The translations under genes and the position numbers were made by a program. From positions 1 through 32,170 of the forward strand of contig DAHWDR010000257.1 of the NCBI GenBank assembly GCA_027330745.1: a stretch of 32,170 nt of DNA, in the 5' to 3' direction. Below are positions 4,343 through 19,654 of the stretch, piece after piece. The notes beneath the pieces were generated by a model. The model saw only the letters and a list, made by a program, of their open reading frames with translations. It made no database searches and had not been told where the DNA came from. Within the stretch, counting starts at the first letter, position 1; each line of letters starts with the position of its first letter. The DNA is from Acetobacteraceae bacterium (GTDB lineage Bacteria; Pseudomonadota; Alphaproteobacteria; Acetobacterales; Acetobacteraceae).

Positions 4343-5941
4343 TTACCGGGTAACTGATTGACCGGGATGGGTTTTTTCTGCCTCTCCGGTGTAGGATTGC
4401 TGGCGCCGGAGGAAGGTCGGGATTTCGAGTCCCTCATCCTCCCCCACCACCGGACGCACCTCCGGGCGGTCCATCGGGTGTCCACCCGTGTGCCCACCTG
4501 CGTGCCCAGCGGGGCGGCCGACGGGGCGTACCGTGTCCGACGGGTCCTCGGCATAGACACCAAGGCCGGGTTCGTGGCGCGGCTCGGTTGGCGGGGCGGC
4601 CACCCCGCTTCCGCCGCGGCGCGAGAAAATGCCCGTCACGGTGCCGAAGATGCTGGTGCGTTCCGGCTGCGTCGGCCGTGCCGGCGCGGCGCGCGGGCGG
4701 GCCGGGGCCGAGGGGATGAAGCCCGGCCGCGGCGCCTCCGTGGTCTCGGCCCGGCCCAGGGAGGGTGCAACGGCGGATGACGCGATCGGCGGTACCGACG
4801 GACGCAGCGGTGCGGCGTGACCCGGGGCGGCTTCGGCGACCGGTGCGGCGGACATGTCCACCGCCGTCAGAACGGGCCCCGCGGCGCGCCCGGTGGCCGG
4901 TGGCAGATCCTGCGCCACGCCGCCATTCACCGCGACCAGTTTTGGCCGGTCCTGGCTGCTCGCGAGCGGCACGTCGATGCCGGTCGCAATCACCGAGACG
5001 CGGATTCGCCCCGTCAGGCTGGGGTCGGTGGCGGAGCCGAAGATGATCTCGGCGTCCGGGTCCACTTCCTGGGCGACGCGCTTAGCGGCGTGCTCGACCT
5101 CGAACAAGGTCAGATCGTCGCCGCCGGTGATGTTGATCAGCAAGCCCCGCGCGCCGGCCATGGAGGTGTCTTCCAGCAGCGGGTTGTTGATCGCCGCCTC
5201 GGCCGCCAGCACCGCGCGATTATCGCCCTCGGCGGTGCCGGTGCCCATCATCGCCTTGCCCATCTCGCGCATCACGGTGCGGATGTCGGCGAAATCCAGG
5301 TTGATCTGCCCCGGCGCCATCATCAGGTCGGTGACGCTACGGACGCCTTCGTACAGCACCTGGTCGGCCATTTTGAAGGCCTCCTTCCAGGTGGTACGGT
5401 CATTTGCCATACGGAACAGATTCTGGTTCGGGATGATGATCAGGGTATCGACGTGTTCCTGCAGCTCGGCGATGCCTTCCTCGGCGGCGCGGGCGCGGCG
5501 GCGGCCCTCGAAATCGAACGGCTTGGTGACGACGCCGATGGTCAGGATGCCGCGCTCGCGCGCCATCCGCGCGATCACCGGGGCGGCCCCGGTGCCGGTG
5601 CCGCCGCCCATGCCGGCGGTGACGAACACCATGTGGCTGCCGTCCAGATGGCGGTACAATTCGTCGGCCGCTTCCTCGGCCGCGGCGCGCCCCACCTCGG
5701 GCCGGGCGCCGGCGCCGAGGCCCTGGGTGATATGCGGGCCGAGCTGGATCCGCCGCGTGGCACGGGAATGGATCAGCTGCTGCGCGTCCGTGTTCGCCAC
5801 CACGAACTCGACGCCCTGCAGGTCGGCGGCGATCATGTTATCGACGGCGTTGGTGCCGCCGCCGCCGACGCCGATCACCGAGATGCGCGGGGTGAAATCC
5901 GTGTGCACCGGCTGATCGGTCTTTTTCATGTGCAGAACCAT
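4343..5941 (-). CDS. ftsZ: cell division GTPase FtsZ
   Basis: Contains [10 protein letters not shown], the tubulin signature [11 protein letters not shown], a long Pro/Ala-rich linker and the conserved C-terminal peptide [11 protein letters not shown] chose the ATG at 5941 because GGAGGGG lies 9 nt upstream. An ATG at 5929 is the alternative. The upstream part of ORF 4343..6067 runs into the palindromic element. Confidence 0.95.
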
Positions 5942-6007
5942 AGCAGGCGACCCCTCCGTCGATTCGTTGACTTGAACGCCATGCCCGCGATTCGGGGCAA
6001 GCGGCTT

Positions 6008-6156
6008 GTTGGCTAGGTAGTGTCTCGGTTTGAACGTCGGCGCCGGCCCGCACCCCCACCCGGCCACCCAACGTCAGTATATTGGCATTGGGTGGCCGGG
6101 TGGGGGTGCGGGCCGGCGCCGACTTGCTGTTCAAACCGAGACACTACCGTTGGCTT
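6008..6156. mobile_element. MITE-like non-autonomous palindromic element (133 bp, 6016..6148) flanked by a GTTGGCT direct duplication
   Basis: The left arm (6016..6071, 56 nt) is the perfect reverse complement of the right arm (6088..6148) except for a 5-nt insertion (TTGCT) in the right arm. The loop is 16 nt and AT-rich (cgtcagtatattggca). GTTGGCT occurs at 6008..6014 and 6149..6155, next to both ends. No coding capacity. Confidence 0.6.
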
Positions 6157-6158
6157 TG

Positions 6159-7460
6159 TCACAGTCGTTCCTTCACGAACGCCACCACGCGGGCGAGCCA
6201 GCCCCCGCGCGGCAACGGGTCGAGATCGATATCCGCGAGCCGCCGTCCGTTGCCGGCCGCCCAGGACAGCAGCCCCGCGGCGGTGGCGAAGGCGGGCCCG
6301 GCAGCGGCATCGGGCAGTCCGCGCAGGCTGGACGGCCGGCCGATCCGCACCTGCTTGCCGAGAATCTCGGCCGCCAGTTCGCGCACCCCGCCGAGTTGGC
6401 AGGCGCCCCCGGTCAACACGACCCGGTTGCCCGCGGCGCGCGTCAGGCCGGAGCTTTCCAGACGTTGCTTTACCAGCTCGAACGTCTCCTCCATGCGCGG
6501 GCGGATCACGCGCACCAGGTCGCTGCGCGGCACGCGCGCCAAATGATGGTCTTCCTCGCCGATCAGCGGCACCGGCAGCATCTCGTGATGATCGTCCGGG
6601 CAGCCGGAGGCGTTGCCGAACAGCGCCTTCAACCGTTCCGCGTGCGCCACCGGCGTGGACAGTAGCCGCGCCAGATCGTTGGTGACATGCACTCCGCCGA
6701 TCGGCAGCTGCGCGGTGTGCAGCAGCTGACCCTCGGCGAACACCGCCATCCCGGTGGTGCCGCCGCCCATGTCGATCACGGTGGCTCCCAGTTCGCGCTC
6801 GTCCTCCACCAGCACGGCAAGCCCCGCGGCCATCGGCGCGGAGACCAGCTCGGCCACGTCCAGATCGCAGCGCGCCATGCACGCGCCGAGCGAACGCAGC
6901 GCCCCCGACGCCGCATCGATGATGTGCAGCCGCGCCGTCAGGGTGGAGCAGAACAGACCGCGCGGATCGGCGACCCCTTCGGTCTCATCGGCCGAGAAGG
7001 TCAGAGGCAGGGCGTGGATCGTCTCGCGCCCCTCGCCTTCGGCGCGGGCGCGGCCTTCGGACATGATGCGGCGGATATCCGCCTCCTCCACCGCGCGACC
7101 GCCGACATGCCACTGCACATTCAGCAGCCGGCTTTCCGGCTGACCGCAGCTTAGATTCACGGTCACGCTGCGCAGCCGCGTATCGGCCATGTCCTCGGCC
7201 TGGCCGACCGCGGCGCGGATCGCGCGCTCGGCCTCGTCCAGATCGACGATGCCGCCGCCGCGCACGCCCTTGCCGCGATGCCAGCCGAAACCGGTGGCGC
7301 GCAGCCGGCCGTCGGCTTCCTGCCGGCCGATCAGGCAGACCACCTTGGTGGTGCCGATATCCAGGATTCCGATCGGGCCGGAGCGTCCACCGCGTCCGCG
7401 CGGGGCGTCCTCCGCACCGGGTTCCTGCGCCACCAGCAGGCGCGGGGCCATCTGGTTCAT
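6159..7460 (-). CDS. ftsA: cell division protein FtsA (actin-like ATPase)
   Basis: Contains ILDIGTTKVVCLIG, VIDMGGGTT, VLTGGACQLGGVRELA and a C-terminal amphipathic helix. The ATG at 7460 overlaps the ftsQ stop (ATGA). The upstream part of the 679-aa ORF overlaps ftsQ and is rejected. Confidence 0.95.
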   Translation of the reverse strand: MNQMAPRLLVAQEPGAEDAPRGRGGRSGPIGILDIGTTKVVCLIGRQEADGRLRATGFGWHRGKGVRGGGIVDLDEAERAIRAAVGQAEDMADTRLRSVTVNLSCGQPESRLLNVQWHVGGRAVEEADIRRIMSEGRARAEGEGRETIHALPLTFSADETEGVADPRGLFCSTLTARLHIIDAASGALRSLGACMARCDLDVAELVSAPMAAGLAVLVEDERELGATVIDMGGGTTGMAVFAEGQLLHTAQLPIGGVHVTNDLARLLSTPVAHAERLKALFGNASGCPDDHHEMLPVPLIGEEDHHLARVPRSDLVRVIRPRMEETFELVKQRLESSGLTRAAGNRVVLTGGACQLGGVRELAAEILGKQVRIGRPSSLRGLPDAAAGPAFATAAGLLSWAAGNGRRLADIDLDPLPRGGWLARVVAFVKERL

Positions 7461-8320
7461 GTCGGTTTCTTTCCGGTGGGAGGGGGCGGCACCGCGGCCG
7501 CGATCGGACGCAGCACCAGCATCGATGGCAGGCGCAGATCGATGAACCGCAGCGGCCGGTCGAGCAGCGCGAACTGCGCTTGCAGCTGCGCCAGCCGCGC
7601 GATCGCGCGCACCGCGTGCCCGCCCGGCAGGCGGACCGTCATGCCGGATTTCATCATCAGATCCCAGCGCCGGGAATCCACCCGCACCGCCGCGGCCACG
7701 CGCGGCGCCAGTTCCGGCTGCGCGTTCAGCGCGTCCAGCAGCCGCGCCGCGGCACGTGGCGCGCCCGGTCCCACAACCAGGGGCAGGGCGCGGAAGTCGC
7801 GCGCGTTGCGGTCGGCGACGGTGTCCCCGTCGCGGTCGATCAGGCGGAATTTGCCTTGATCCTGCCAGATCGCGAATGGCCGCCGCTCGATCAGACGCAC
7901 CACGATCGTGTCGGGCAGGCGCCGCTCCACGGTGGCGTGCTGCACCCAGGACAGGCGCTCGATGCGCGCGGCCACGGCGCGGATCGGCACCGCCAGGATC
8001 GGGGTGCCGCGATGCACGTCCATCGCGTCGCGCAGCACCGGCTCGGGGGTATTGGCGCGGCCTTCGATGACGATGTGGCGCACCTGCATCCCGGCCCGCG
8101 CGGCATCGCCGGCCAGTGCCAGATGCAGCCGGTCCAGCGTGCTGCCCGGCGTGCCGGAGCGCAGCAGCGCGGTCAGTGCCAGCAGCACCAATCCGCATCC
8201 GGCGGCGACCGCGGCGGGACGGATCAGCCAGCGCTGCCGACGCAACAGCAGCCGCAGCCGCGCCGGCCGGTCCTGGATGGAATTGCGCGGCCCGCGCGCC
8301 TTGTTCACCCCGCGCGGCAT
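7457..8320 (-). CDS. ftsQ: cell division protein FtsQ
   Basis: 287 aa with a basic N-terminus, one transmembrane segment (AAVAAGCGLVLLALTALL), a POTRA-like block (VRHIVIEGRANT...) and ...RRWDL... It lies between ddl and ftsA. The ATG at 8320 overlaps the ddl 3' end by 16 nt. Confidence 0.85.
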   Translation of the reverse strand: MPRGVNKARGPRNSIQDRPARLRLLLRRQRWLIRPAAVAAGCGLVLLALTALLRSGTPGSTLDRLHLALAGDAARAGMQVRHIVIEGRANTPEPVLRDAMDVHRGTPILAVPIRAVAARIERLSWVQHATVERRLPDTIVVRLIERRPFAIWQDQGKFRLIDRDGDTVADRNARDFRALPLVVGPGAPRAAARLLDALNAQPELAPRVAAAVRVDSRRWDLMMKSGMTVRLPGGHAVRAIARLAQLQAQFALLDRPLRFIDLRLPSMLVLRPIAAAVPPPPTGKKPT

Positions 8321-9228: not shown

Positions 9229-10433
9229 GGCGTGGTCTCCCCGGTTGGATCGGAGCCGGAGCCCCCCGTCCCGGAGCGCCCCGTCCCGGAGCCCCCCGTC
9301 ATGGCTGGGCTTGACCCAGCCATCCGCGCACCGGCCGCGCCCGCCGCGACGCTGGCGCGCCCGGATAAGGGCGTCCGCGAGTCCCCCGCCGCCGCATCCG
9401 TCGGCGCGCGACCCGAGGTGGGCGCGGTCCCCGGGTGGATGGCCGGGTCAAGCCCGGCCATGACGGGTGTTTGCACGGCGGGCGTGTCCGCGGCGGGTGT
9501 GTGCGCGACCGGGGACGGCGCAGCGCCGTGCTGGCCCAGGCGGCGGATTTCCCATTCCAGCCGGACGCCGGTCGCGGCGAACACGCGCCGGCGCAGCTCT
9601 TCGCCCAGACCTTCCAGGTCGGCCGCCGTCGCGGCCCCGGTGTTGATCAGGAAATTGCAGTGCTTCTCGGACACCATCGCGCCGCCGCGGGTCAGGCCGC
9701 GGCAGCCGGCGGCATCGATCAGCTCCCACGCCTTCTGGTGCGGCGGGTTGCGGAACGTGGACCCGCCGGTGCGCGCGCGGACCGGCTGGCTCGCTTCCCG
9801 CGCCGCCCGGATCTCGGTCATTCGCGCCGCGATCGCCGCCGTTGTCCCGGGGCGCGCCCGCAGCCGCGCGCGGACCACCGCCGCGCCATGCGGCAGCCGC
9901 GCGTGGCGATAGGCGAAGGCCAGATCCGCCGCCGCCAGTCGCACCAGCGCGCCGGAGCGCGTGACCATCTCGGCCCAGTCCAGCACCGAGGCGATGTCGC
10001 CGCCATACGCGCCGGCGTTCATCGCCACCGCCCCGCCGATCGTCCCCGGCACGCCGCACAGGAACTCCAGTCCCGCCAGACCGGCCGCCGCCGCGTGTTC
10101 CGCCACCGTCGCGTCCAGTGCGCCGGCGCCGGCCACCACCCCGTCCGCCTCGATCGCGACGGCCGTGAATCCGCGTGCCAGCCGCACCGTCACCCCGGGA
10201 ATGCCGCCGTCGCGGAGGATCAGGTTGGAGCAAGCACCCAGCACATGCACCGGGATCTCGGGCGCCAGCGTGCCCAGGAACGCGCCCAGATCGGCCGCGT
10301 CGGCCGGGCGGATCAACACCTCGGCCGGCCCGCCGACGCGGAACCAGGCCGTCCCGGCCAGAGGCGCGTCGTGCTGCACCCGCCCGCGCAATGGCGGCAG
10401 ATCGAAACCCGCGACGCGCGCGGCGGCCATCAT
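9225..10433 (-). CDS. murB: UDP-N-acetylenolpyruvoylglucosamine reductase MurB with a repeat-derived C-terminal extension of about 100 aa
   Basis: The MurB core runs from FRVGGPAE through [18 protein letters not shown] and [10 protein letters not shown], ending near 9534. The reading frame then continues with no stop through 9533..9228 (low-complexity sequence plus REP palindromes) to a TGA that overlaps the ddl ATG. Confidence 0.9.
9256..9300. repeat. 3 x 15-nt tandem repeat (CCGGAGC[C/G]CCCCGTC)
   Basis: Units are at 9256..9270, 9271..9285 and 9286..9300, directly abutting REP palindrome P1. In the murB frame they read [15 protein letters not shown]. Confidence 0.85.
9301..9323. repeat. 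REP-like 23-nt palindrome P1 (ATGGCTGGG-CTTGA-CCCAGCCAT)
   Basis: 9-bp perfect stem with a 5-nt loop. With its flanks it reads GTCATGGCTGGGCTTGACCCAGCCATCCGC. Translations (VMAGLDPAI / ..MAGSSPAMT..) match the peptide signatures I recall from alphaproteobacterial REP-derived spurious ORFs. Confidence 0.7.
9439..9461. repeat. REP-like 23-nt palindrome P2 (ATGGCCGGG-TCAAG-CCCGGCCAT), inverted relative to P1
   Basis: Same family as P1 in the opposite orientation; its loop TCAAG is the reverse complement of CTTGA. It lies 115 nt from P1. The + strand frame reads [11 protein letters not shown] and the murB frame reads [10 protein letters not shown]. Confidence 0.7.
9462..9506. repeat. 3 x 15-nt imperfect tandem repeat (G[A/G]CGGG[T/C]GT[T/G]T[G/C]C[A/G]C)
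   Basis: Units are at 9462..9476, 9477..9491 and 9492..9506, directly abutting P2 on its outer side. This mirrors the arrangement at P1. The murB frame reads [15 protein letters not shown]. Confidence 0.7.
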
Positions 10434-11905
10434 GGCAGCGCTCCCGTGCGTCGCGCGCCGCCCGGGCCAGGGGCATTGCCCGGCGCTTTACCCACTTGGG
10501 CCTGCAACGCGGCCAGCTCAGCCGGCAGCGTCGCGGCCCATTGCGTGATGTTCCCCGCGCCCAGGCAAACCACGTAATCGCCCGGGCGCGCGATCGCGAA
10601 CACCATCTCGGCCAACCGCGCCGGCGATGACAGTGGCACCACCGAGCGATGCCCGCGCGCGCGCAAGCCCTCCACCAGCGCGTCGCGGTTCACGCCCGGG
10701 ATCGGCGCTTCGCCGGCTGGATACACATCCGCCACGATCACCGTCCCGGCGTCGTTCATGCACGCGCAGAACTCGGGGAACAGCGATTGCAGACGAGAAA
10801 ACCGGTGCGGCTGCACCACCGCGACCACGTTCTTCGCCCCCGCCTGACGCGCGGCTTTCAGGACCGCGGCGATCTCCACCGGATGGTGGCCGTAATCGTC
10901 GATCACGGTGATCCCGCCGGCCTCGCCGGTGCGGGTGAAGCGGCGCTTCACGCCGGCAAAGCCGGCAAACGCGCTGCGCAGCGTGTCGGCGTCGATCATC
11001 ATCTCGACGCCCACGGCCACCGCGGCCAGCGCGTTCTGCACGTTGTGGCTGCCCAGCATCGGCAGGCGGAATGGACCCATCTGGCGGGTGCGGTTGCGGA
11101 TCCGGTCCGTCACCGTCACGTGGAACGTGGCGCCCCGGCTGTCCGCGCGCAGTTGTTCCGCCCGCACATCGGCCTGCGGGCTGAAGCCGTAGGTGATGAT
11201 GCGCCGGTCCGCCAGGCGCGGGATCATCTGCTGCACGCCGGGATGGTCGATGCACAGGACCGCGAAACCGTAGAACGGGATGTTGGCGACGAACTGATCG
11301 TAGCCCGCCACCATCGCCTCGGCCGTGCCCCAATGGTCCAGATGCTCGGGGTCCATGTTGGTGACCACGGCGATCACGGCGGGCAGGCGGAGGAAACTGC
11401 CGTCGCTTTCGTCGGCCTCCACCACCATCCATTCGCCCTGGCCCATGCGGGTGTTGGAGCCGTAGGCGTTGATGATCCCGCCATTGATGACGGTGGGATC
11501 GAGCTTGGCCGCTTCCAGCACTGCGGCGATCAGCGACGTGGTAGTGGTCTTGCCATGGGTGCCGCCGACCGCGATCGACCATTTCAGGCGCATCAGCTCG
11601 GCCAGCATTTCGGCCCGGCGCACCACCGGCAGGAAGCGGGCGCGGGCGGCGGCCACTTCCGGGTTGTCGCGCTTCACGGCTGAGGAGATCACCACCACCT
11701 GCGCGTCGCCCAGATGGGCCGCGTCATGGCCGATGGAGACCGCGATCCCGGCATCGCGCAGCCGGCGCACATTGGTGGAATCGGCGATATCGCTGCCCTG
11801 GACGCGGTATCCCAGCGTGTGCAGCACCTCGGCGATGCCTGACATGCCGATGCCGCCGATGCCGACGAAATGGATCGTGCCGATGGAAAGCGGCAGCGCC
11901 CTCAT
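10430..11905 (-). CDS. murC: UDP-N-acetylmuramate--L-alanine ligase
   Basis: Contains [28 protein letters not shown] and DDYGHHP. The ATG at 11905 overlaps the murG stop (ATGA), and the stop overlaps the murB ATG (ATGA). Confidence 0.95.
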
Positions 11906-13116
11906 GGCACGCTCTCCCCGGCGCCGACGCGCAGCACCAGGTCGGCCAGGCGCTCGGCCGCGTCGGCGCGCGACAGGGCGAACGCGGCGGCGGCGGCGCG
12001 GGTGCGGCGGTCGGGATCGGACAGCCACGCGGTCAACGCGCGCGACAGCGCAAGCGCGTCCAGCCCGGCCTGATCCAGACGCTCGGCTGCGCCGGCCGCG
12101 ACCAGCGGGATGGTGTTGGCGCGCTGGTGGTCGTCGATCGCGCCCGGCAACGGAACCAGCAGCGACGGGCGCCCGACCGTGGCGATCTCGGCGATGGTCG
12201 AGGCGCCGGCGCGCGCCACCACCAGCTGCGTATTCGCCAGAAGCGCGCCGATATCGGCGAAGAACGGTGCCAGGGTCGCGCGCACGCCGGCTGCGTCATA
12301 GGCGGCGCGCACCCGGTCGAGATCCTCGGCGCGGCATTGCTGGGTCACCGCGAGGCGCGCCCGCAGCGGCGCCGCCAGCAGTGCCACCGCTGCCGGCACC
12401 AGGTCCGCGAACACCCGCGCCCCCAGCGATCCGCCCAGCACCAGCAGCGACAGCGGCGGGCCGGGGACGTAGCGCGCGCCGGCATGAGCCAGGATTCCGG
12501 CGCGCACCGGATTGCCGGTCACGACGACGGCAACCTGCGCCGGCACCAGGGCGGTATCGGCGAAGCTCAGTGCCAGACAGGCGGCGCGACGGACCAGCAG
12601 GCGGTTCGCCCGCCCCAGCACCGCGTTCTGTTCGTGCAACACCACCCTGGGACGCGGGCGCGAGAGGAACGCGCCGAGCGCCGGCGCCACCGACGGGTAG
12701 CCGCCGAATCCCACCACCGCCTGCGCGTCGAGGCCGCGCAGCAGGCCGCGCGCGCGCCAGCCGCCCCAGGTCAGCGCGCAGGCAGCCGCGACGCCACGCC
12801 GCAGGCCGCGTCCGGCGATCCCGGCACCGGGGAGCACATGCACATCCAGCCCGGCGAAGGCGGCGCTGGCCGCCGCCCGCGTATCGGTCATCAGCACCAC
12901 CGGTTCGCCGCGCGCGGCCAGCGCGGCGGCCAGCGCCTCGGCCGGGAACAGATGCCCGCCGGTCCCGCCGGCGGCGATCACCACCGGCCTGCCGCAGCTT
13001 CGCGCCTGCGGTTGCGGAAGCCGGCGCGGGCGCGGACCGCGCGCGCCGAAATCCGATGCCTGCGCGCCCGCCAGCGGCGGGGAGAAGCGTTCGGCCATGA
13101 CGGTGGGGCCGCTCAT
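11902..13116 (-). CDS. murG: undecaprenyldiphospho-muramoylpentapeptide beta-N-acetylglucosaminyltransferase MurG
   Basis: Contains [26 protein letters not shown], and the ...[11 protein letters not shown]...G.P..LVP motif. The ATG at 13116 overlaps the ftsW stop (ATGA), and the 44 codons before the G-loop have coding-like GC3. The alternative GTG at 12984/12981 would give a canonical protein of about 360 aa. Confidence 0.9.
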
Positions 13117-14234
13117 AGCGATTCCCCCCGCACCCGCCGCCGGCTCAGCGCCAGCAACATGCCGACCTCCAACGCCGAGGCGAGCGCCGAGGACCCGCCA
13201 TAGGAAATGAACGGCAGCGTCATCCCCTTGGTCGGGATCATCGCCAGCGCCGAGGCCATGTTCACGAACGCCTGCAACCCGAACGCCGCGAGCAGTCCGG
13301 TGCAGGCCAGCACGATGAACGGGTCGGTCTCGTGGAGCACCCGCCACATCCCGCGCAGCACGATGAAGGCGAACACCAGCGGGATCAGCGCGGTGAAGAT
13401 CAGGCCGATCTCCTCGCCGGCGACGGCAAAGATGAAATCGGCGTGGGCGTCGGGCAGCTGATCCTTGATCCGCCCTTCGCCCAGGCCGCGGCCCAGCAGG
13501 CCGCCATGGCCGAACGCTTCCAGCGCGGTCTTGATCTGATAGGTGTGCGGGCCGTGCGGGTGCAGGAACTCGGCGACGCGCAGGCGCACATGGCCGAACA
13601 TCAAATAGGCGGCGATCGCCAGCCCCACCATCGCCAGCAGCGCCAGCGCCACCGCGGCCAGGTTCAGCCCATCCACAAAGAACTGCACGAACAGCACCGC
13701 GGTGATTACCGCGGCCATGCCCACATCGGGCTGTTCCTTCAGCAGGAACATGATCACCAGCCAGATCGCGCAGGCGATCACGCCGCCCGGGAAGCGCGGA
13801 TTGCGCCGCCGCTCCGCCAGCAGCCAGGCGGCTACCACGGCGAAGCACGGTTTGAGGAACTCGCTGGGTTGCACCGCGAATCCGGGGAAGCGAATCCAGC
13901 GCCGCGCGCCGAGTACCTCCATGCCGATTGCCAGGGTCGCGGCGGTCAGGATCAGCGCCACGATCCCGCCCACCAGTGCCAGCCGCCGCACATCGCGCGG
14001 CGTCAGCATCGAGATCGCGAGCATGGCAACCAGCCCGGCCAGCAGGAACACCACCTGCTTGGCCAGCAGGTGATAGCGCGGATCGCCCAACCGGGCGGCC
14101 GCGGACGGCGCGGCGGCCAGCGCCAGCAGATAGCCGAAGCCGAACAGCACCCCCACCGCGCCGAGCGAGGCGTGATCGACGGTCCACCACCAGCGGCCCA
14201 GCACGGAATTGTCGGCACGCGAGACGGTCATCAC
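13113..14234 (-). CDS. ftsW: peptidoglycan glycosyltransferase FtsW (SEDS family)
   Basis: Polytopic membrane protein with QPSEF.K, PDAHADFIFAV.GEE.G and LPFISYGGSS motifs. The start is either GTG 14234 (GTGA overlap with the murD stop) or ATG 14231. Confidence 0.93.
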   Translation of the reverse strand: MMTVSRADNSVLGRWWWTVDHASLGAVGVLFGFGYLLALAAAPSAAARLGDPRYHLLAKQVVFLLAGLVAMLAISMLTPRDVRRLALVGGIVALILTAATLAIGMEVLGARRWIRFPGFAVQPSEFLKPCFAVVAAWLLAERRRNPRFPGGVIACAIWLVIMFLLKEQPDVGMAAVITAVLFVQFFVDGLNLAAVALALLAMVGLAIAAYLMFGHVRLRVAEFLHPHGPHTYQIKTALEAFGHGGLLGRGLGEGRIKDQLPDAHADFIFAVAGEEIGLIFTALIPLVFAFIVLRGMWRVLHETDPFIVLACTGLLAAFGLQAFVNMASALAMIPTKGMTLPFISYGGSSALASALEVGMLLALSRRRVRGESL

Positions 14235-15730
14235 GCGGTCTCCGTCTGCGGCAGGGCGCCAGCGAGGGCGGCGAAGCGCACACCGCGCGCCTCGAACCCC
14301 GCGAACTGGTCGAAGCTGGCGCAGGCGGGCGAGAGCAGCACCACCGGCGCGGCCTGCGCGCGGGCGGCGGCGAGGGCGGCCGGAACCGCCGCCTCCAGCG
14401 TGTCCACCACGCGATGCGCGACGCCGGCGCCCGCAAGGGTTTCGGCCAGCACCGGGCCGTCGCGGCCGATCAGGAACGCCGCTTCGATGCGCGGGAAGAA
14501 CGGGGCGAGTGCTGCGATCCCGCCCGCCTTGGCGATGCCGCCGGCGATCCAGATCAGGCGCGGGTAGCAGGCCAGCGCGCGCGCCGCGGCATCGGCGTTG
14601 GTGGCCTTGCTGTCGTCGATGAAGCGCACGGCGCCGATCCGCGCGACCTCGCGCTGGCGGTGCGGCAGGCCGGGGAAGCGCATGATCGCGCGCGCCACCG
14701 CGGCGCGGTCGGCACCGAGGTGCAGCGCAATCGCGCAGGCGGCCGCGGCGTTCTGCGCGTTATGCGTGCCGGGCAAGGAAAATGCGTCGTTCAGGTCCAG
14801 CACCGGTCCCACCGCGTCGCGCAGCACCGAGCCAATGGCGGAGACGTCGGCCGCGCCCTCACCCGAGACCGTGACCAGCCGCGCCGGGCCGCCACGCAGC
14901 CCATCGGCCATGGCGCGGGAGGGAGCGTCGTCGATCCCGATCACCGCCAGGTCGGCGGATGTTTGGCGCGCGAACACCTGGCGCTTGGCCGCGGCATAGC
15001 CCGCCATGTCGCCGTGTCGGTCCAGATGGTCGGGCGAGAGATTCAGCATCGCCGCGACAGCGAAGCGCATGGTTTCGAGTCGCTCCAACATGTAGCTCGA
15101 CATTTCCAGGACATAGACGCCGCCATCTGCCAGCAGCGGCAGCGACAGCGCCGCCGGCCCCAGATTGCCGCCGGCGGCGCAGGCGATCCCGGTCTCGGTC
15201 AGGATATGGGCGAGCAGCGCGGTGGTGGTGGATTTGCCGTTGGTCCCGGTGATGCCGACGAAGCGGGTGGCGGATCCGGCGGCGCGCACGGCACGGAACA
15301 GCAGCTCGGCATCCGACAGGATCGGCACGCCGGCGGCGATCGCGCGCGCAGCGGCCGGATGCGGCGCGGGCAGACCATGCGGGATGCCGGGGGACAGGAT
15401 CAGGGCGTCCAGCGGCGCATCCCATGCGGCGGGATCGACCACGGCGACCCGCCCCCGCTTTGCGGGGGGAGAAGGCTGGGGTGAGGGGGGACGCGCGGGC
15501 GGGACGCCGCCCCGGCAAAAGGAGTCGGGGGCCGCTTCTCCTCCCTCACCCCAGCCCTCTCCCCCCGCGAAGCGCGGGGAGAGGGAACTGCGCCGCGCGG
15601 GATCATCGTCCCAGGCCAGCACGTCGGCGCCCATCGCCGCCAGCGCGGCGACCGCGGCGGCGCCGTTGCGCCCCAGTCCCAGCACCGCGAAGCGGCGTCC
15701 CGCGAACAGATCCCGGGGGAAGCCGCTCAT
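14231..15730 (-). CDS. murD: UDP-N-acetylmuramoylalanine--D-glutamate ligase MurD, carrying an in-frame repeat-derived insertion
   Basis: Contains [28 protein letters not shown] and DDSKATN. The ATG at 15730 overlaps the mraY stop (ATGA). At 499 aa it is about 45-55 aa longer than typical MurD because of the insertion at 15437..15596. Confidence 0.93.
15452..15583. repeat. composite palindromic repeat element lying inside the murD reading frame
   Basis: The left arm is CCCCGCTTTGCGGGGGGAGAAGGCTGGGGTGAGG (15453..15486). The right arm's reverse complement is CCCCGCGCTTCGCGGGGGGAGAGGGCTGGGGTGAGG (15544..15579). The arms are about 31/34 identical with a 2-nt indel and are separated by about 57 nt. 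Each arm carries its own small hairpin (CCCCGC-TTT-GCGGGG; CTCTCCCC..GCG-AAG-CGC-GGGGAGAG). Confidence 0.6.
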
Positions 15731-16815
15731 CGGATTTTCAACGTCGCCAGGCCGAGCAGGGCCAGGACCATGGAGATGATCCAGAACCGGATCACGATGG
15801 TGGGTTCTGCCCAGCCCTTCTTCTCGAAATGATGATGCAACGGCGCCATCAGGAACACGCGCGTGCCGGTGCGCTTGAACCAGAACACCTGGATGATGAC
15901 GGACACCGTCTCCACCACGAACAGCCCGCCCACGATCGCCAGCACGATCTCGTTCTTGGTCACCACGGCCACCGCGCCCAGCGCGCCGCCCAGCGCCAGA
16001 CTGCCGGTATCGCCCATGAACACCGCCGCCGGTGGCGCGTTGAACCACAGGAAGCCCAGCCCCGCGCCGATCAGCGCCGAGCAGAACACGGTCAGCTCGC
16101 CCGCCCCCGGCACCGGATGCAGCTGCAAGTAATCGGCGAAGATGCGGTTGCCCACCAGATACGCGATCAGCGCGAACACGCCGGCGGCGATGATCGAGGG
16201 CACGATCGCCAGACCGTCCAGCCCGTCGGTCAGATTGACCGCGTTCGAACTGCCCATCATCACCAGCGCGCCGAACACCGGGAAACCCCAGCCCAGCGGG
16301 ATCAGCAAGGTCTTGAACACCGGCAGCGCCAGCGCATCGCCCAGAGTCCCGTCGGTGGTGTGCATGATCCAGGTCGCGGCCAGCAGCCCGATCACCGCCT
16401 GACCCAGCAGCTTCGCCCGCCCCGGCAGGCCGCGATGGTTGCGCCGCGCAAGTTTCAGGTAGTCGTCGGCGAATCCCAGCAGGCCATAGCCGAACGTCAC
16501 GCCCATCACCGCCCAGATGTAGCGGTTGCGCAGATCCACCCACAGCACTGTGGCGCCCAGGGTGGCCAGCAGGATCAGCACGCCGCCCATGGTGGGCGTG
16601 CCGGCCTTCTCGATCAGATGGCGTTCGGGGCCGTCGGCGCGGATCGGCTGGCCCTGGCCCTGGGTGCGGCGCAGCCAGCGGATCAGGCCGGGGCCGATCA
16701 GGAAGCTCATCACCAGCGCGGTCAGGCACGCGGCGCCGGACCGGAACGTGATGTAGTGCACCACGTTGAAGGCCGAGATGTCGCGCGTGAGCGGATGGGC
16801 CAGGGCGAACAGCAT
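15727..16815 (-). CDS. mraY: phospho-N-acetylmuramoyl-pentapeptide transferase
   Basis: 362 aa with [34 protein letters not shown] and [13 protein letters not shown] lies 7 nt upstream of the ATG at 16815, which overlaps the murF stop by 1 nt. Confidence 0.97.
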
Positions 16816-18173
16816 CAGCCCGCCTCCGTCCGGCGCAGGATCGCGGCGACGATCGTCCGCATTCGGCTGCCCAGGCTGCCCTTCACCAGGATCGTGTCGC
16901 CCGCCGTGACCTCGGCCGCAACCAGCGGCGCCAGGGTGGCGGCGTCGGGCGCATACACCACCGGCGGCGTGCCCGGCAGGGCGTTGCGCAGCTGGCGCAT
17001 CTGCGGCCCGCACAGGAAGATGCGATCGGCGCGCAGGGCTTTCGCCAGGGCGGCGTGCTCGGCGGGGCCATGCTCGCCCAGCTCCAGCATGTCCCCCAGT
17101 ATGGCGATGCGCCGCCCCGCTTCCGCGGCCAGCACCGCCAGCGCGGCACGCATGGAGGCGGGGTTGGCGTTGTAGCTTTCGTCCAGCAACAAGACCTCCC
17201 CGCTGGTCATCGTCAGGGTGCGGCGCGCGCCGCGGCCGGGGAGCGGGGCGAACCCGTCCAGCGCAGCGGCGGCGGCGGCGGGCGCTACGCCCAAAGCGGC
17301 GGCGACGGCGAGCGCGGCGAGCGCGTTCTCGGCCATATGCAGGCCCGGGGCGGCCAGGCGCAGCCGGACCGCCACGCCCGCGCAGCACGCTTCGATGCGC
17401 GATCCGGCCGGTTCGGGAGTGAACCGATCCAGCCGGAACGCCGCATCGCGGCCGGCGCCGAAGGTCAGCACCTGCGCGGCGGACGCGGCGGCGCGCAGAA
17501 TCCCGAACTCTGGCGCCGCTTCCGGCAGCACCGCGATCCCGCCGGGTTCCAGCCCCTGGAAGATCGCTGCCTTTTCCGCCGCGATCGCCGCGAGTGTCCC
17601 GAGATGGCCGATATGCGCCGGTGCGATCGCGGTGATCGCCGCCACATGCGGGCGGACCAGCCGCGCGAGCGGGGCGATCTCGCCCGGGTGATTCATGCCG
17701 AGCTCGGCAATGCAGAAGGCGGCGTCCGCCGGCAGGCGCGCCAGCGTCAGCGGCACGCCCCAATGGTTGTTGTATGACGCTTCGGCGGCGTGGGTCGGGC
17801 CAGCGGCTTGCATGATCCGCCGCAGCATTTCCTTGGTGGTGGTCTTGCCGACGCTGCCGGTGACCGCCGCCACGCGCCCGGTAAAGCGCGCCCGCCCGGC
17901 CGCGCCCAGCGCGGTGAGGCCGGCCTGCGTGTCCGCGACGATCAGACAGGCGCCATCGCCGATCGCGCGTTCCGCCAGTGCGCCCCCGGCGCCGCGCGCC
18001 AGCGCGTCGGAGACGAACAGATGCCCGTCGCGATTCTCGCCCTGCAGGGCGACGAAAATCTCACCTGGGGCCACGGCACGAGTGTCGATGGACACGCCGG
18101 TGGCATCGAACCGGCGGGTGAACCGCCCGCCCGTGGCGGCCTCCAATGCCGCGGCGGTCCAGAGCGCGGTCAT
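16815..18173 (-). CDS. murF: UDP-N-acetylmuramoyl-tripeptide--D-alanyl-D-alanine ligase
   Basis: Contains [37 protein letters not shown] and DESYNANP. The ATG at 18173 overlaps the murE stop (ATGA). Confidence 0.93.
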
Positions 18174-19654
18174 GCGGCGCTCCCGACCCGTTCGCGGATC
18201 ACGGCGGCGTCGTCGAACGGAAGCACCTCCGCGCCAACGATCTGCCCGCTTTCGTGGCCCTTGCCGGCTACCACCAGCACGTCGCCCGGCCCAAGCGCGT
18301 GGAGTCCGGCGACAATCGCCCGCGCCCGGTCCCCGATCTCCATTGCGCCGGGGCAGGCGGCCAGGATCGCGGCGCGGATCGCGGCGGGGTCTTCCGAACG
18401 CGGATTGTCGTCGGTCACGATCACGCGGTCCGCGCCGCGCGCCGCCACCGCGCCCATCAGCGGACGCTTGCCGCGGTCGCGGTCGCCGCCGGCGCCGAAC
18501 ACCACCACCAGCCGCCCTTTGGTATGCGGGCGCAGCGCCTCCAACGCGCGGCGCAGCGCGTCCGGGGTGTGCGCGTAATCGACATAGGCGCAAGCGCCGT
18601 TGGCAAGACGCGCGGCGCGTTCCAGCCGCCCGCGCACCGGGCGCAGCGCGGGCAGGGCGGCGAGTGCGTCGGCCTCGCCCAGCGCCTCGGCGAGCGCCGC
18701 GGCAAGCAGCGCATTCTCGGCCTGGAACCGCCCGGGAAGGGACAATGCGATGCGGCACGGCGCGGCGCCGGCGCGCGAGATCGTCAGGTCCTGCCCGTCG
18801 GCGCGCGGCGTCGCGGCGATCAGGCGCAGCGCGTGGCCGGCATCGCCGACCAGACGTAGGTCCAGCCGGCGGCGGCGGGCGATGTCGGTCAGGGCCGCCA
18901 GCGTTTCCGGATCCATATCGGCGTTGGCGACCGCCGGCGCGCCCTCGGGCAGCAGCGTGTCGAACAGGCGCAGCTTGGCGGCGCGATAGGCCGCCACCGA
19001 GCCATGGTAGTCCATATGGTCGCGCGTGAGGTTAGTGAAGCCGGCGCCGGACAATGCCACCCCGTCGAGCCGGCATTGATCGAGACCATGCGACGACGCC
19101 TCCAGCGCCGCATGGTCGATCCCGCTCCGGGCCAGTGCGGCGAGCGTGTCGGCGAGCGCCACCGGATCGGGCGTGGTCAGGCCGGCGCCGGTGGCCGGCC
19201 CGTCGCCCGTTTCCACCCCGAGCGTGCCGAGGCTTGCCGCAAGGTGGCCCGCCAGCGCCCAGATCTGGCGCAGGAACGACACCGTACTGGTCTTGCCGTT
19301 GGTGCCGGTGACGGCGGCGATCACGCGCGGCGCCGGGCCGGCGAACCGTGCCGCCAGCAGCGCCAGCAGCCGGCGCGGCGCGGGATGAGCAAGCAGCGGG
19401 CGGGCGGGCGTGCCCTCCGGCCATTCCGTGCCCTCGGGGGCCAGGATGGCGGCGGCGCCGCGCGCCACGGCCTCGGCGATGAAGGCGCGCCCGTCGGTTT
19501 GCGCGCCCACCTGGCCGACGGGGCGGGTGCCGGGCAGGGCGGCGAACAACATCCCCGGCTGCACGCGGCGGCTGTCGGCGGTCACGCCGGCCAGGTCCAG
19601 CCCGGCCAGAGCGGGCGCCTCGGCCAGACCGGCCAGGAGCTCAGCGCCGCGCAA
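18170..19654 (-). CDS. murE: UDP-N-acetylmuramoyl-L-alanyl-D-glutamate--2,6-diaminopimelate ligase
   Basis: Contains TADSRRVQPGMLFAAL.G, VTGTNGKTST, EASSHGL, DYAHTPDAL and DNPR (meso-DAP type). The TTG start at 19654 has GGAGA 6 nt upstream and overlaps the ftsI 3' end by 14 nt. Confidence 0.92.
   Translation of the reverse strand: MRGAELLAGLAEAPALAGLDLAGVTADSRRVQPGMLFAALPGTRPVGQVGAQTDGRAFIAEAVARGAAAILAPEGTEWPEGTPARPLLAHPAPRRLLALLAARFAGPAPRVIAAVTGTNGKTSTVSFLRQIWALAGHLAASLGTLGVETGDGPATGAGLTTPDPVALADTLAALARSGIDHAALEASSHGLDQCRLDGVALSGAGFTNLTRDHMDYHGSVAAYRAAKLRLFDTLLPEGAPAVANADMDPETLAALTDIARRRRLDLRLVGDAGHALRLIAATPRADGQDLTISRAGAAPCRIALSLPGRFQAENALLAAALAEALGEADALAALPALRPVRGRLERAARLANGACAYVDYAHTPDALRRALEALRPHTKGRLVVVFGAGGDRDRGKRPLMGAVAARGADRVIVTDDNPRSEDPAAIRAAILAACPGAMEIGDRARAIVAGLHALGPGDVLVVAGKGHESGQIVGAEVLPFDDAAVIRERVGSAA

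Follow-up and report, generated by a model that had tools for sequence, protein, structure and literature searches.

A probable inverted pair of BoxC/TM triplex-motif units lying in frame within the essential murD gene of an Acetobacteraceae bacterium

More than 260 genomes have been described as carrying the short bacterial repeat known as BoxC, as the PIT element or as the TM intrastrand triplex motif (TM unit) (Holder et al., 2015, NAR, PMC4666352, which credits Bachellier and Hoyne/Maher). E. coli K-12 carries 23 copies, always intergenic, and five E. coli sites are inverted pairs; in this species the motif showed no connection with transposons, phages or plasmids and did not act as promoter or terminator, and it is associated with local instability that includes partial deletions at palindromic sites (PMC4666352). 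The same motif has been proposed to act as a G-quadruplex/hairpin switch in E. coli, where none lies within an open reading frame (ORF) (bioRxiv 10.1101/032615). Here we analyze a stretch of 32,170 nt from an Acetobacteraceae bacterium (assembly GCA_027330745.1, contig DAHWDR010000257.1; the window) in which murD, the gene for a Mur ligase, contains a palindromic element. We consider it highly probable that this element is an inverted pair of BoxC/PIT/TM units that was inserted in frame and is most likely translated as a tolerated, disordered surface loop. The repeat family is already known; what is new is a BoxC/TM pair inside an essential ORF and read in frame.

What the murD element shares with the BoxC/PIT/TM family is the three-block unit (CCCTC[T/G]CCC, loop, GGGAGAGGG, 2-3 nt, GGGGTGAGGG) with a mirror repeat as third block, together with inverted pairs tens of nucleotides apart, a spread across phyla and partial deletions that leave hairpins. 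It differs in that the E. coli copies are intergenic whereas the murD element lies in frame in an essential ORF, in having a first loop of 9 nt that extends the stem and one truncated unit, and in having CT in both units (type-B-like) rather than pairing a type A with a type B unit. Rickettsia palindromic elements (RPEs; Ogata et al., 2000, 2002) are summarized in PMC10969869 as palindromes of ~100-150 bp that occur between genes and in frame in unrelated housekeeping genes, apparently compatible with fold and function. The preliminary description of the murD element, made from the window sequence, had likened it to RPEs, and in its in-frame behavior the comparison holds, since TM units are likewise found in frame in unrelated genes as well as between genes. 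By sequence and architecture, however, the element is a BoxC/PIT/TM pair: it would belong to a different, G/C-rich sequence family, its hosts span phyla rather than one genus, and it consists of two short triplex-motif units instead of a single long palindrome encoding a conserved peptide. The murD element would hence behave like an RPE without being a member of that family, and the likeness is one of behavioral analogy.

The ERIC/RU, NEMIS/Correia and RUP sequences generate target duplications. They resemble inverted-repeat transposable elements of miniature size (MITEs) with terminal inverted repeats, whereas the murD element has no target-site duplication, and a MITE with such a duplication was rejected because the 8-nt repeat proposed to flank the element is native sequence. 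ERIC/RU-1, RU-2, RU-3, NEMIS/Correia and RUP are intergenic repeats with open frames that are occasionally fused in frame into genes (Delihas, 2007, PMC2759123, which makes no mention of BoxC). An intergenic repeat family that carries open frames and gives rise to in-frame gene fusions is thus what they have in common with the murD element. REP families are species-specific, whereas the 22-mer core of the murD element is common to many phyla. REP, BIME and REPIN sequences are, according to PMC3733652, GTAG- or CGTC-tagged palindromes mobilized by RAYT transposases, and like the murD element they consist of short G/C-rich palindromic units, often in inverted doublets. The murD element has neither tag, and REP/REPIN membership was rejected as no GTAG occurs between 15092 and 16459.

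Evidence that the element was inserted comes from orthologues with an empty site. The window murD has an uninterrupted translation of 499 aa, while P0002 and P0003, its nearest orthologues, have 455-456 aa at 78-79% identity and lack the segment, their protein reading DDDPARRAAIAHPVDPAAWGRIDALVLSPG at this point. Alignment of the window DNA to the empty-site genes L001 and L002 gives a single clean gap of 132 nt (44 codons) at ~15445-15576, coinciding with the inverted repeat, so that the net gain is 132 nt and ~3 native codons are replaced by the element, whose boundaries were read from its architecture and are uncertain by ~+/-10 nt. The preliminary description was right that the segment is lineage-specific and keeps the frame without a stop codon, but it had taken the insert to be 168 nt (56 codons) long and bracketed by an 8-nt direct repeat, GCGGGATC, which the alignment contradicts. 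The two 8-mers do lie where they had been placed, yet both align to native sequence of the empty-site genes, where the upstream copy corresponds to GACCCCGC and the downstream one to GATCCCGC, and they are therefore not a target-site duplication. Excision of 168 nt would also take ~12 native codons (ARRAAIAHPVDP in P0002), including the conserved ARR...VDP stretch, and by rough estimate 281 nt of 70% GC sequence would show about two repeats of 8 nt by chance. At the true junctions no direct repeat was seen by inspection in the window, L125 or L126. The same insert is present in P0001 (locus L003, from an independent metagenome), which is 99% identical to the window MurD; the insert differs by one nucleotide (A67D, in the spacer) and the two murD genes overall by 6 synonymous and 5 non-synonymous codons.

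The inverted repeat in murD measures 127 nt, with arms of 47 nt at 15452-15498 and 15532-15578 that are 85% complementary and separated by a spacer of 33 nt. Within each arm lies a further small hairpin, 15555-15568 / 15572-15585 (14 nt, 93%) in one and CCCCCGC-TTT-GCGGGGG at 15452-15468 in the other. All of this bears out the palindrome with hairpin-bearing arms that had been reported previously, except that the arms of ~34 nt and ~90% identity given there fit the inner core of the full arms. RNA of 15425-15610(-) has a predicted fold of -126.9 kcal/mol compared with -97.4 +/- 4.6 for shuffled sequences (z = -6.4; 0/200 as stable). The 21-mer arm core occurs twice in the window (0.00 expected), and a loose three-block triplex-motif pattern finds one full unit there versus 0.005 per shuffle. 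That match, unit 1, has the general form CCCTCTCCCC-loop-GGGGAGAGGG-CT-GGGGTGAGGG, a hairpin followed by a mirror-repeat G-block. Specifically, 15543-15585(-) presents a pyrimidine block, loop, purine block, short loop and third G-rich block in this order, the three blocks being CCCTCTCCCC / GGGGGGAGAGGG / GGGGTGAGGG, and GGGGAGAGGG-CT-GGGGTGAGGG agrees with the TMECO consensus as represented by no. 3 (GGGGAGAGGGCCGGGGTGAGGGG) and no. 8 (GGGCTGGGGTGAGGGT) in Table 1 of PMC4666352. By inspection, the third block reversed, GGGAGTGGG, pairs with GGGAGAGGG as G.G, A.A and T.A triads. Loop 1, GCGCTTCGC, is partly a stem extension (CCCCGCG/CGCGGGG) and loop 2 has 2 nt. Unit 2 keeps its purine and third blocks, but where it adjoins native murD its outer pyrimidine block has been shortened or has degenerated. 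The element contains four G-tracts (GGGGGGAGAGGGCUGGGGUGAGGG), has a length divisible by three and is free of stop codons in four of six reading frames, and the residues it encodes are rich in Gly, Pro and Ser. GC by codon position is flat in the insert (0.77/0.79/0.74) compared with the rest of murD (0.77/0.56/0.88), a composition that fits a non-coding origin. Such an origin had been proposed in the preliminary description, and the arms indeed belong to a dispersed family with intergenic copies elsewhere. A search of Rfam at gathering thresholds gave no family in the window, and no promoter or terminator was predicted at the element when 13000-17000 was scanned.

The wider distribution of the repeat was assessed by scanning GTDB representative genomes with the 22-mer core GGGGAGARGGCTGGGGTGAGGG; the core of unit 1, GGGGAGAGGGCTGGGGTGAGGG, has exact matches in at least 120 genome stretches. 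Among the matches listed, the hosts include Pseudomonas, Xanthomonadales, Sphingomonas, Rhizobiales, Burkholderiales and Enterobacter, and in other phyla Planctomycetota, Verrucomicrobiota, Chloroflexota, Nitrospirota, Desulfobacterota, Myxococcota and Acidobacteriota. In every listed copy the complementary block CCCTC[T/G]CCC and then a short loop come before the core, giving a hairpin plus a second G-block, and inward pairs account for 31 of the 117 evaluable copies listed, with spacers mostly of 20-45 nt. When the unit was compared by blastn with 5426 E. coli genomes, matches were obtained in 1547, all chromosomal, at ~80% identity over 92% of the unit, and the eight that were listed have no annotated feature underneath. 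At the protein level, a word-indexed search with the 50-aa insert peptide gave no match, and phmmer, run with the 47-aa peptide on 1.84 billion representative sequences, gave one marginal match only, to a repetitive protein of 1641 aa; compositional bias probably makes phmmer unsuited to counting translated copies. The core also occurs exactly in 43 viral or proviral contig stretches (IMG/VR, L128-L170), whereas PMC4666352 saw no phage association in E. coli. TM units can form local arrays, as in Pseudomonas sp. RIT-PI-r, where three copies with conserved flanks lie ~209-210 nt apart (L069:2577-3017), and two near-identical inward TM pairs are found 330 nt apart in a metagenome-assembled genome of Rhodanobacter (L006:216-567).

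Location within a gene is not confined to murD. We examined 126 core copies for stop-free frames that extend on both sides and scanned the 16 best against Pfam. At least seven of the 126 sampled copies are in frame in real genes, having domains on both sides or splitting a domain (Table 1); the other 9/16 spanning ORFs lacked Pfam support on both sides and were left out of the count. Judged from these sequences, in-frame TM units would be a low-frequency phenomenon across phyla, and no earlier report of TM units in frame in genes was found in the literature searched.

Within MurD itself the same loop has been occupied repeatedly. In a set of 121 MurDs, consisting of the window protein and its 120 best matches, the segment from WDD to LSPGIP has a modal length of 25-27 residues, and ~25 of the proteins, in at least five tree clades, have a longer loop with TM-type peptides (e.g., PLPxGEGxGEG). 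Of the 26 internal insertions with 8 aa or more, 24 are located in the alpha2-beta3 loop (consensus positions 44-52). As checked at the DNA level, the murD genes of L125 and L126 contain inward TM pairs with short loops, while a CCCCCTCCCC-TTGC-GGGAGGGGG variant is present as an inward pair in L124 and as an outward pair in L127. A single ancestral event for all MurD inserts was considered and rejected, as TM variant, loop sequence and arrangement vary among the clades, and these differences call for at least three independent insertions, a count that rests mainly on the differences between elements because the neighbor-joining tree is rough. Within one clade, the DNA alignment supports one origin with subsequent decay: the pair is complete in P0007, while P0013 retains the left unit only, P0035 the right unit only and P0016 one hairpin only, all in frame and with a common left junction. 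Analogous murD inserts are present in long contigs of 1-8 Mb. The alpha2-beta3 loop has other occupants as well, namely an unrelated repeat PPSLRGAQRRSNPGAQHRAGGPGLL in P0026, a tandem duplication in P0099 and non-TM expansions in P0069 and P0112, and since it also hosts such inserts, the concentration of insertions there would at least partly reflect structural permissiveness. Besides its inward pair in murD (10168-10263), L126 has an outward TM pair in the intergenic region between murC and murB, 5 kb away (15121-15200). A repeat-like peptide WPSSTRPSLRQGAAGDGRVEPGHDDG is found in domain 2 of P0051 (consensus position ~250, alignment A1), and the TM-like peptides at the C-terminus of P0056 and the N-terminus of P0034 may reflect mis-called ends.

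Table 1. Coordinates of the murD element, its component units and flanking genes, and of the other loci compared
Feature	Position	Strand	Description
Inserted element	15449..15589	minus	inverted (inward) BoxC/TM unit pair + spacer, by the preferred reading; MurD residues 48-94, 47 codons
TM/BoxC unit 1, complete	15543..15585	minus	G-rich on mRNA strand; CCCTCTCCCC-GCGCTTCGC-GGGGGGAGAGGG-CT-GGGGTGAGGG
TM/BoxC unit 2	15452..15488	plus	G-rich on template strand; CCCCCGC-TTT-GCGGGGGGAGAAGG-CT-GGGGTGAGGGG
Spacer between arms	15499..15531		33 nt; small internal hairpins in predicted fold; encodes 11 residues
GCGGGATC copy 1	15429..15436	plus	native murD codons for VDPA; identical GGTCGATCCCGCC in empty L001, L002
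GCGGGATC copy 2	15597..15604	plus	native murD codons for DDPA; aligned to GACCCCGC in L001, upstream of gap
murD	14231..15730	minus	UDP-N-acetylmuramoyl-L-alanine--D-glutamate ligase; 499 aa with insert, uninterrupted translation
mraY	15727..16815	minus	upstream of murD in dcw cluster; Pfam Glycos_transf_4 + MraY_sig1
ftsW	13113..14234	minus	downstream of murD; Pfam FTSW_RODA_SPOVE 2e-73
Deletion series, murD 5' parts	L124:10145-10242; L172; L173; L174
UvrA-like ABC protein with TM unit	L044:2037-8000	minus	Polaromonas
VgrG with TM unit	L015:2802-5273	plus	Stutzerimonas stutzeri
HypF with TM unit	L099:2-2683	minus	Verrucomicrobiota; unit inside YrdC-like domain
PutA with TM unit	L082:435-2603	minus	Polaromonas; unit between Pro_dh, which matches in two stretches, and Aldedh
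UvrD/AddA-like helicase with TM unit	L085:99-3527	plus	Sideroxydans
CheA with TM unit	L048:3-1499	minus	Nitrospirae; P1-P3 linker
KsgA with TM unit	L014:55-1065	minus	Verrucomicrobiota (Limisphaerales)

An AlphaFold2 model of the window MurD, built with a 26-sequence alignment, has a mean predicted local distance difference test score (pLDDT) of 83, and residues 55-89 are the only long stretch below 50. The top Foldseek matches of the model are MurD structures, with a target-normalized TM-score of ~0.8. The low-scoring residues are predicted to be disordered and to lie between a helix (44-54, alpha2) and a strand (95-97, beta3) of the N-terminal Rossmann-like domain. The WDDD motif that precedes the insert is what we take to be the Asp35-Thr36-Arg37 loop that contacts the UDP moiety in E. 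coli MurD (Bertrand et al., 1997). In the model the insert would start a few residues after this substrate-binding loop and project away from it as an unstructured excursion of domain 1, the domain in which a loop had been expected by the preliminary description.

The sequences and the model show what the repeat is, that the nearest orthologues lack it, that the frame is kept, where it lies in the fold, that it recurs and decays in one MurD loop of related lineages, and that other genes hold in-frame copies. Based on these data we put forward a mechanism in which a TM pair entered the UDP-binding N-terminal domain of MurD, in the stretch that joins helix alpha2 to strand beta3. We propose that murD stayed open because the element's length is divisible by three and a stop codon is missing from four of the six frames; with that many open frames, ~2/9 of the random insertions of such a unit would leave a gene open. 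Selection would remove insertions other than those that are in frame, stop-free and in permissive loops, so the insert would represent selfish or passenger DNA in an essential gene, later eroded by in-frame partial deletions. The insertion itself would be independent of a transposase and probably an accident of replication or repair promoted by non-B DNA, a route we suggest as speculation, given that there is no target-site duplication and no known link to a transposase.

Several points weigh against this proposal. The literature found describes no mechanism by which TM units insert. Unit 2 is truncated, and the three-block pattern did not find it as a full unit. In unit 1, the first loop, at 9 nt, exceeds the 1-6 nt of the ITxF definition, although the same type of loop is present in an intergenic copy in L171, making it a variant and not a disqualification. 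The intergenic location that is always seen in E. coli does not apply to an element in frame in murD, but location is no sequence criterion of the family. No further copy of the element was found in the 32-kb window beyond the single pair; a 31-mer specific for the subfamily has only one other copy in the metagenome scan, an intergenic monomer (L171), and a spacer-specific pattern has 0 matches in JGI metagenomes. That the loop is translated and near-neutral is what we infer from murD being essential and part of an overlapping dcw operon, from its intact motifs and from the presence of the insert in two assemblies, and the 11 codon differences from L003 are too few to prove purifying selection on the insert.

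Transposition of an RPE-like or MITE-like mobile element into murD, with GCGGGATC as the 8-nt target-site duplication around a 168-nt insert, would explain the palindromic, in-frame nature of the element and the presence of the two 8-mers, but we regard it as very unlikely: the 8-mers are native in the empty-site orthologues, the gap is 132 rather than 168 nt, inspection of the true junctions in the window, L125 and L126 revealed no direct repeat, the GTAG tag is absent from the element, and BoxC/TM has no transposase or mobile-element association in E. coli (PMC4666352). It is even harder to see the insert as a native low-complexity loop that grew in place, by slippage or by drift in composition within a genome of 71% GC, and whose resemblance to TM units is accidental. 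The loop does vary in length within the MurD family, including the non-TM expansions of P0112, P0069 and P0099; against this stand the exact 22-mer common to at least 120 unrelated loci, a full three-block architecture expected only 0.005 times per shuffled window, the clean single-block gap relative to the nearest orthologues and the even GC content over the three codon positions. Equally negligible is the chance that the assembly is chimeric or that this murD is inactive and another locus of the genome provides its function. A second murD might lie beyond the 32-kb window, and the exact protein has no database record, but the same insert is found in the independent assembly L003, analogous inserts are in contigs of 1-8 Mb, and the ORF is intact, with invariant catalytic motifs, conserved dcw synteny and overlapping neighbor genes.

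Two further possibilities concern function and targeting rather than the identity of the repeat. In one, the element has been exapted, either because translation, decay or polarity in the mraY-murD-ftsW operon is adjusted by a hairpin in the mRNA or by an RNA G-quadruplex (GGGGGGAGAGGGCUGGGGUGAGGG), or because the Gly/Pro-rich loop contacts the divisome or a Mur complex. The very stable predicted fold (-126.9 kcal/mol, z = -6.4), the occupation of the same MurD loop in several lineages and the retention of the insert in two independent assemblies are in its favor, as is the proposal that the four-G-tract motif acts as a G-quadruplex-hairpin switch in E. coli (bioRxiv 10.1101/032615). We nevertheless consider exaptation improbable, since the inserts vary in sequence, arrangement and length between lineages and decay by deletion, as neutral passengers would, the nearest relatives lack the insert, the loop tolerates unrelated insertions (a different repeat in P0026, a duplication in P0099), and PIT/TM motifs lack promoter or terminator activity in E. 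coli (PMC4666352). Somewhat less doubtful, but still unlikely, is a broader scheme in which TM units are pan-bacterial, transposase-independent coding palindromes whose entry is directed by structure or target, the MurD loop being a true hotspot or the units having an exapted role there. A true hotspot could be argued from the three or more TM variants and arrangements and the 24/26 internal insertions in this loop, and C-rich tracts or GCCGCCGGCGGC-type palindromes, if shared by empty sites, could direct insertion. If this scheme were true, a repeat ubiquitous in intergenic DNA would serve as a general supplier of new loops to essential enzymes.

Insertion of a TM pair as a tolerated passenger, the reading we prefer, would itself have wider consequences. 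BoxC/TM is among the most widely shared of the short bacterial repeats and both E. coli studies (PMC4666352; bioRxiv 10.1101/032615) describe a strictly intergenic location, while in-frame palindromic repeats in housekeeping genes have so far been treated mainly as a peculiarity of Rickettsia. If our reading is true, the TM family would be a general source of protein loop insertions, the filled, empty and decayed alleles would provide natural material on the insertion and loss of TM units, and disordered Gly/Pro-rich inserts in annotated proteins could be recognized as derived from repeats. It should be noted that MurD is an antibiotic target, and a permissive insertion site beside its UDP-binding loop could be of some practical use for engineering.

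The setting of murD is that of an intact dcw cluster, with murF, mraY, ftsW and murG around it; murD overlaps both neighbors, at its start with the mraY stop and at its stop with the ftsW start, and the gene order in L003 is the same. The window MurD matches Pfam Mur_ligase_M (8e-30) and, more weakly, Mur_ligase_C, and E. coli MurD structures match it at E = 8e-52 (PDB 2jff). It has more than 8000 homologues, the named ones being UDP-N-acetylmuramoylalanine--D-glutamate ligase, and its P-loop GTNGKST, DSKATN and other Mur ligase motifs are invariant relative to orthologues. A database record of the exact protein was not found. At 70.7% GC, the host falls among Acetobacteraceae-like alphaproteobacteria.

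A second, unrelated palindrome of ~130 nt is located at 6017-6147, in the gap between the minus-strand ORFs 4343-6067 and 6159-8198. Its inner arms, 6036-6079 and 6080-6123, are 44 nt long, 93% complementary and without a spacer, and its outer arms are GGTAGTGTCTCGGTTTGAAC and GTTCAAACCGAGACACTACC. Both its ends carry GTAG, at 6017 on the plus strand and at 6144-6147 on the minus strand, a feature also of GTAG-tagged elements of the REP/REPIN type. In the whole window GTAG occurs 70 times compared with 47 +/- 6 expected, mostly on the plus strand, an excess that is probably an effect of codon usage or strand composition because the surveyed genes around murD (11902-18260) are on the minus strand.

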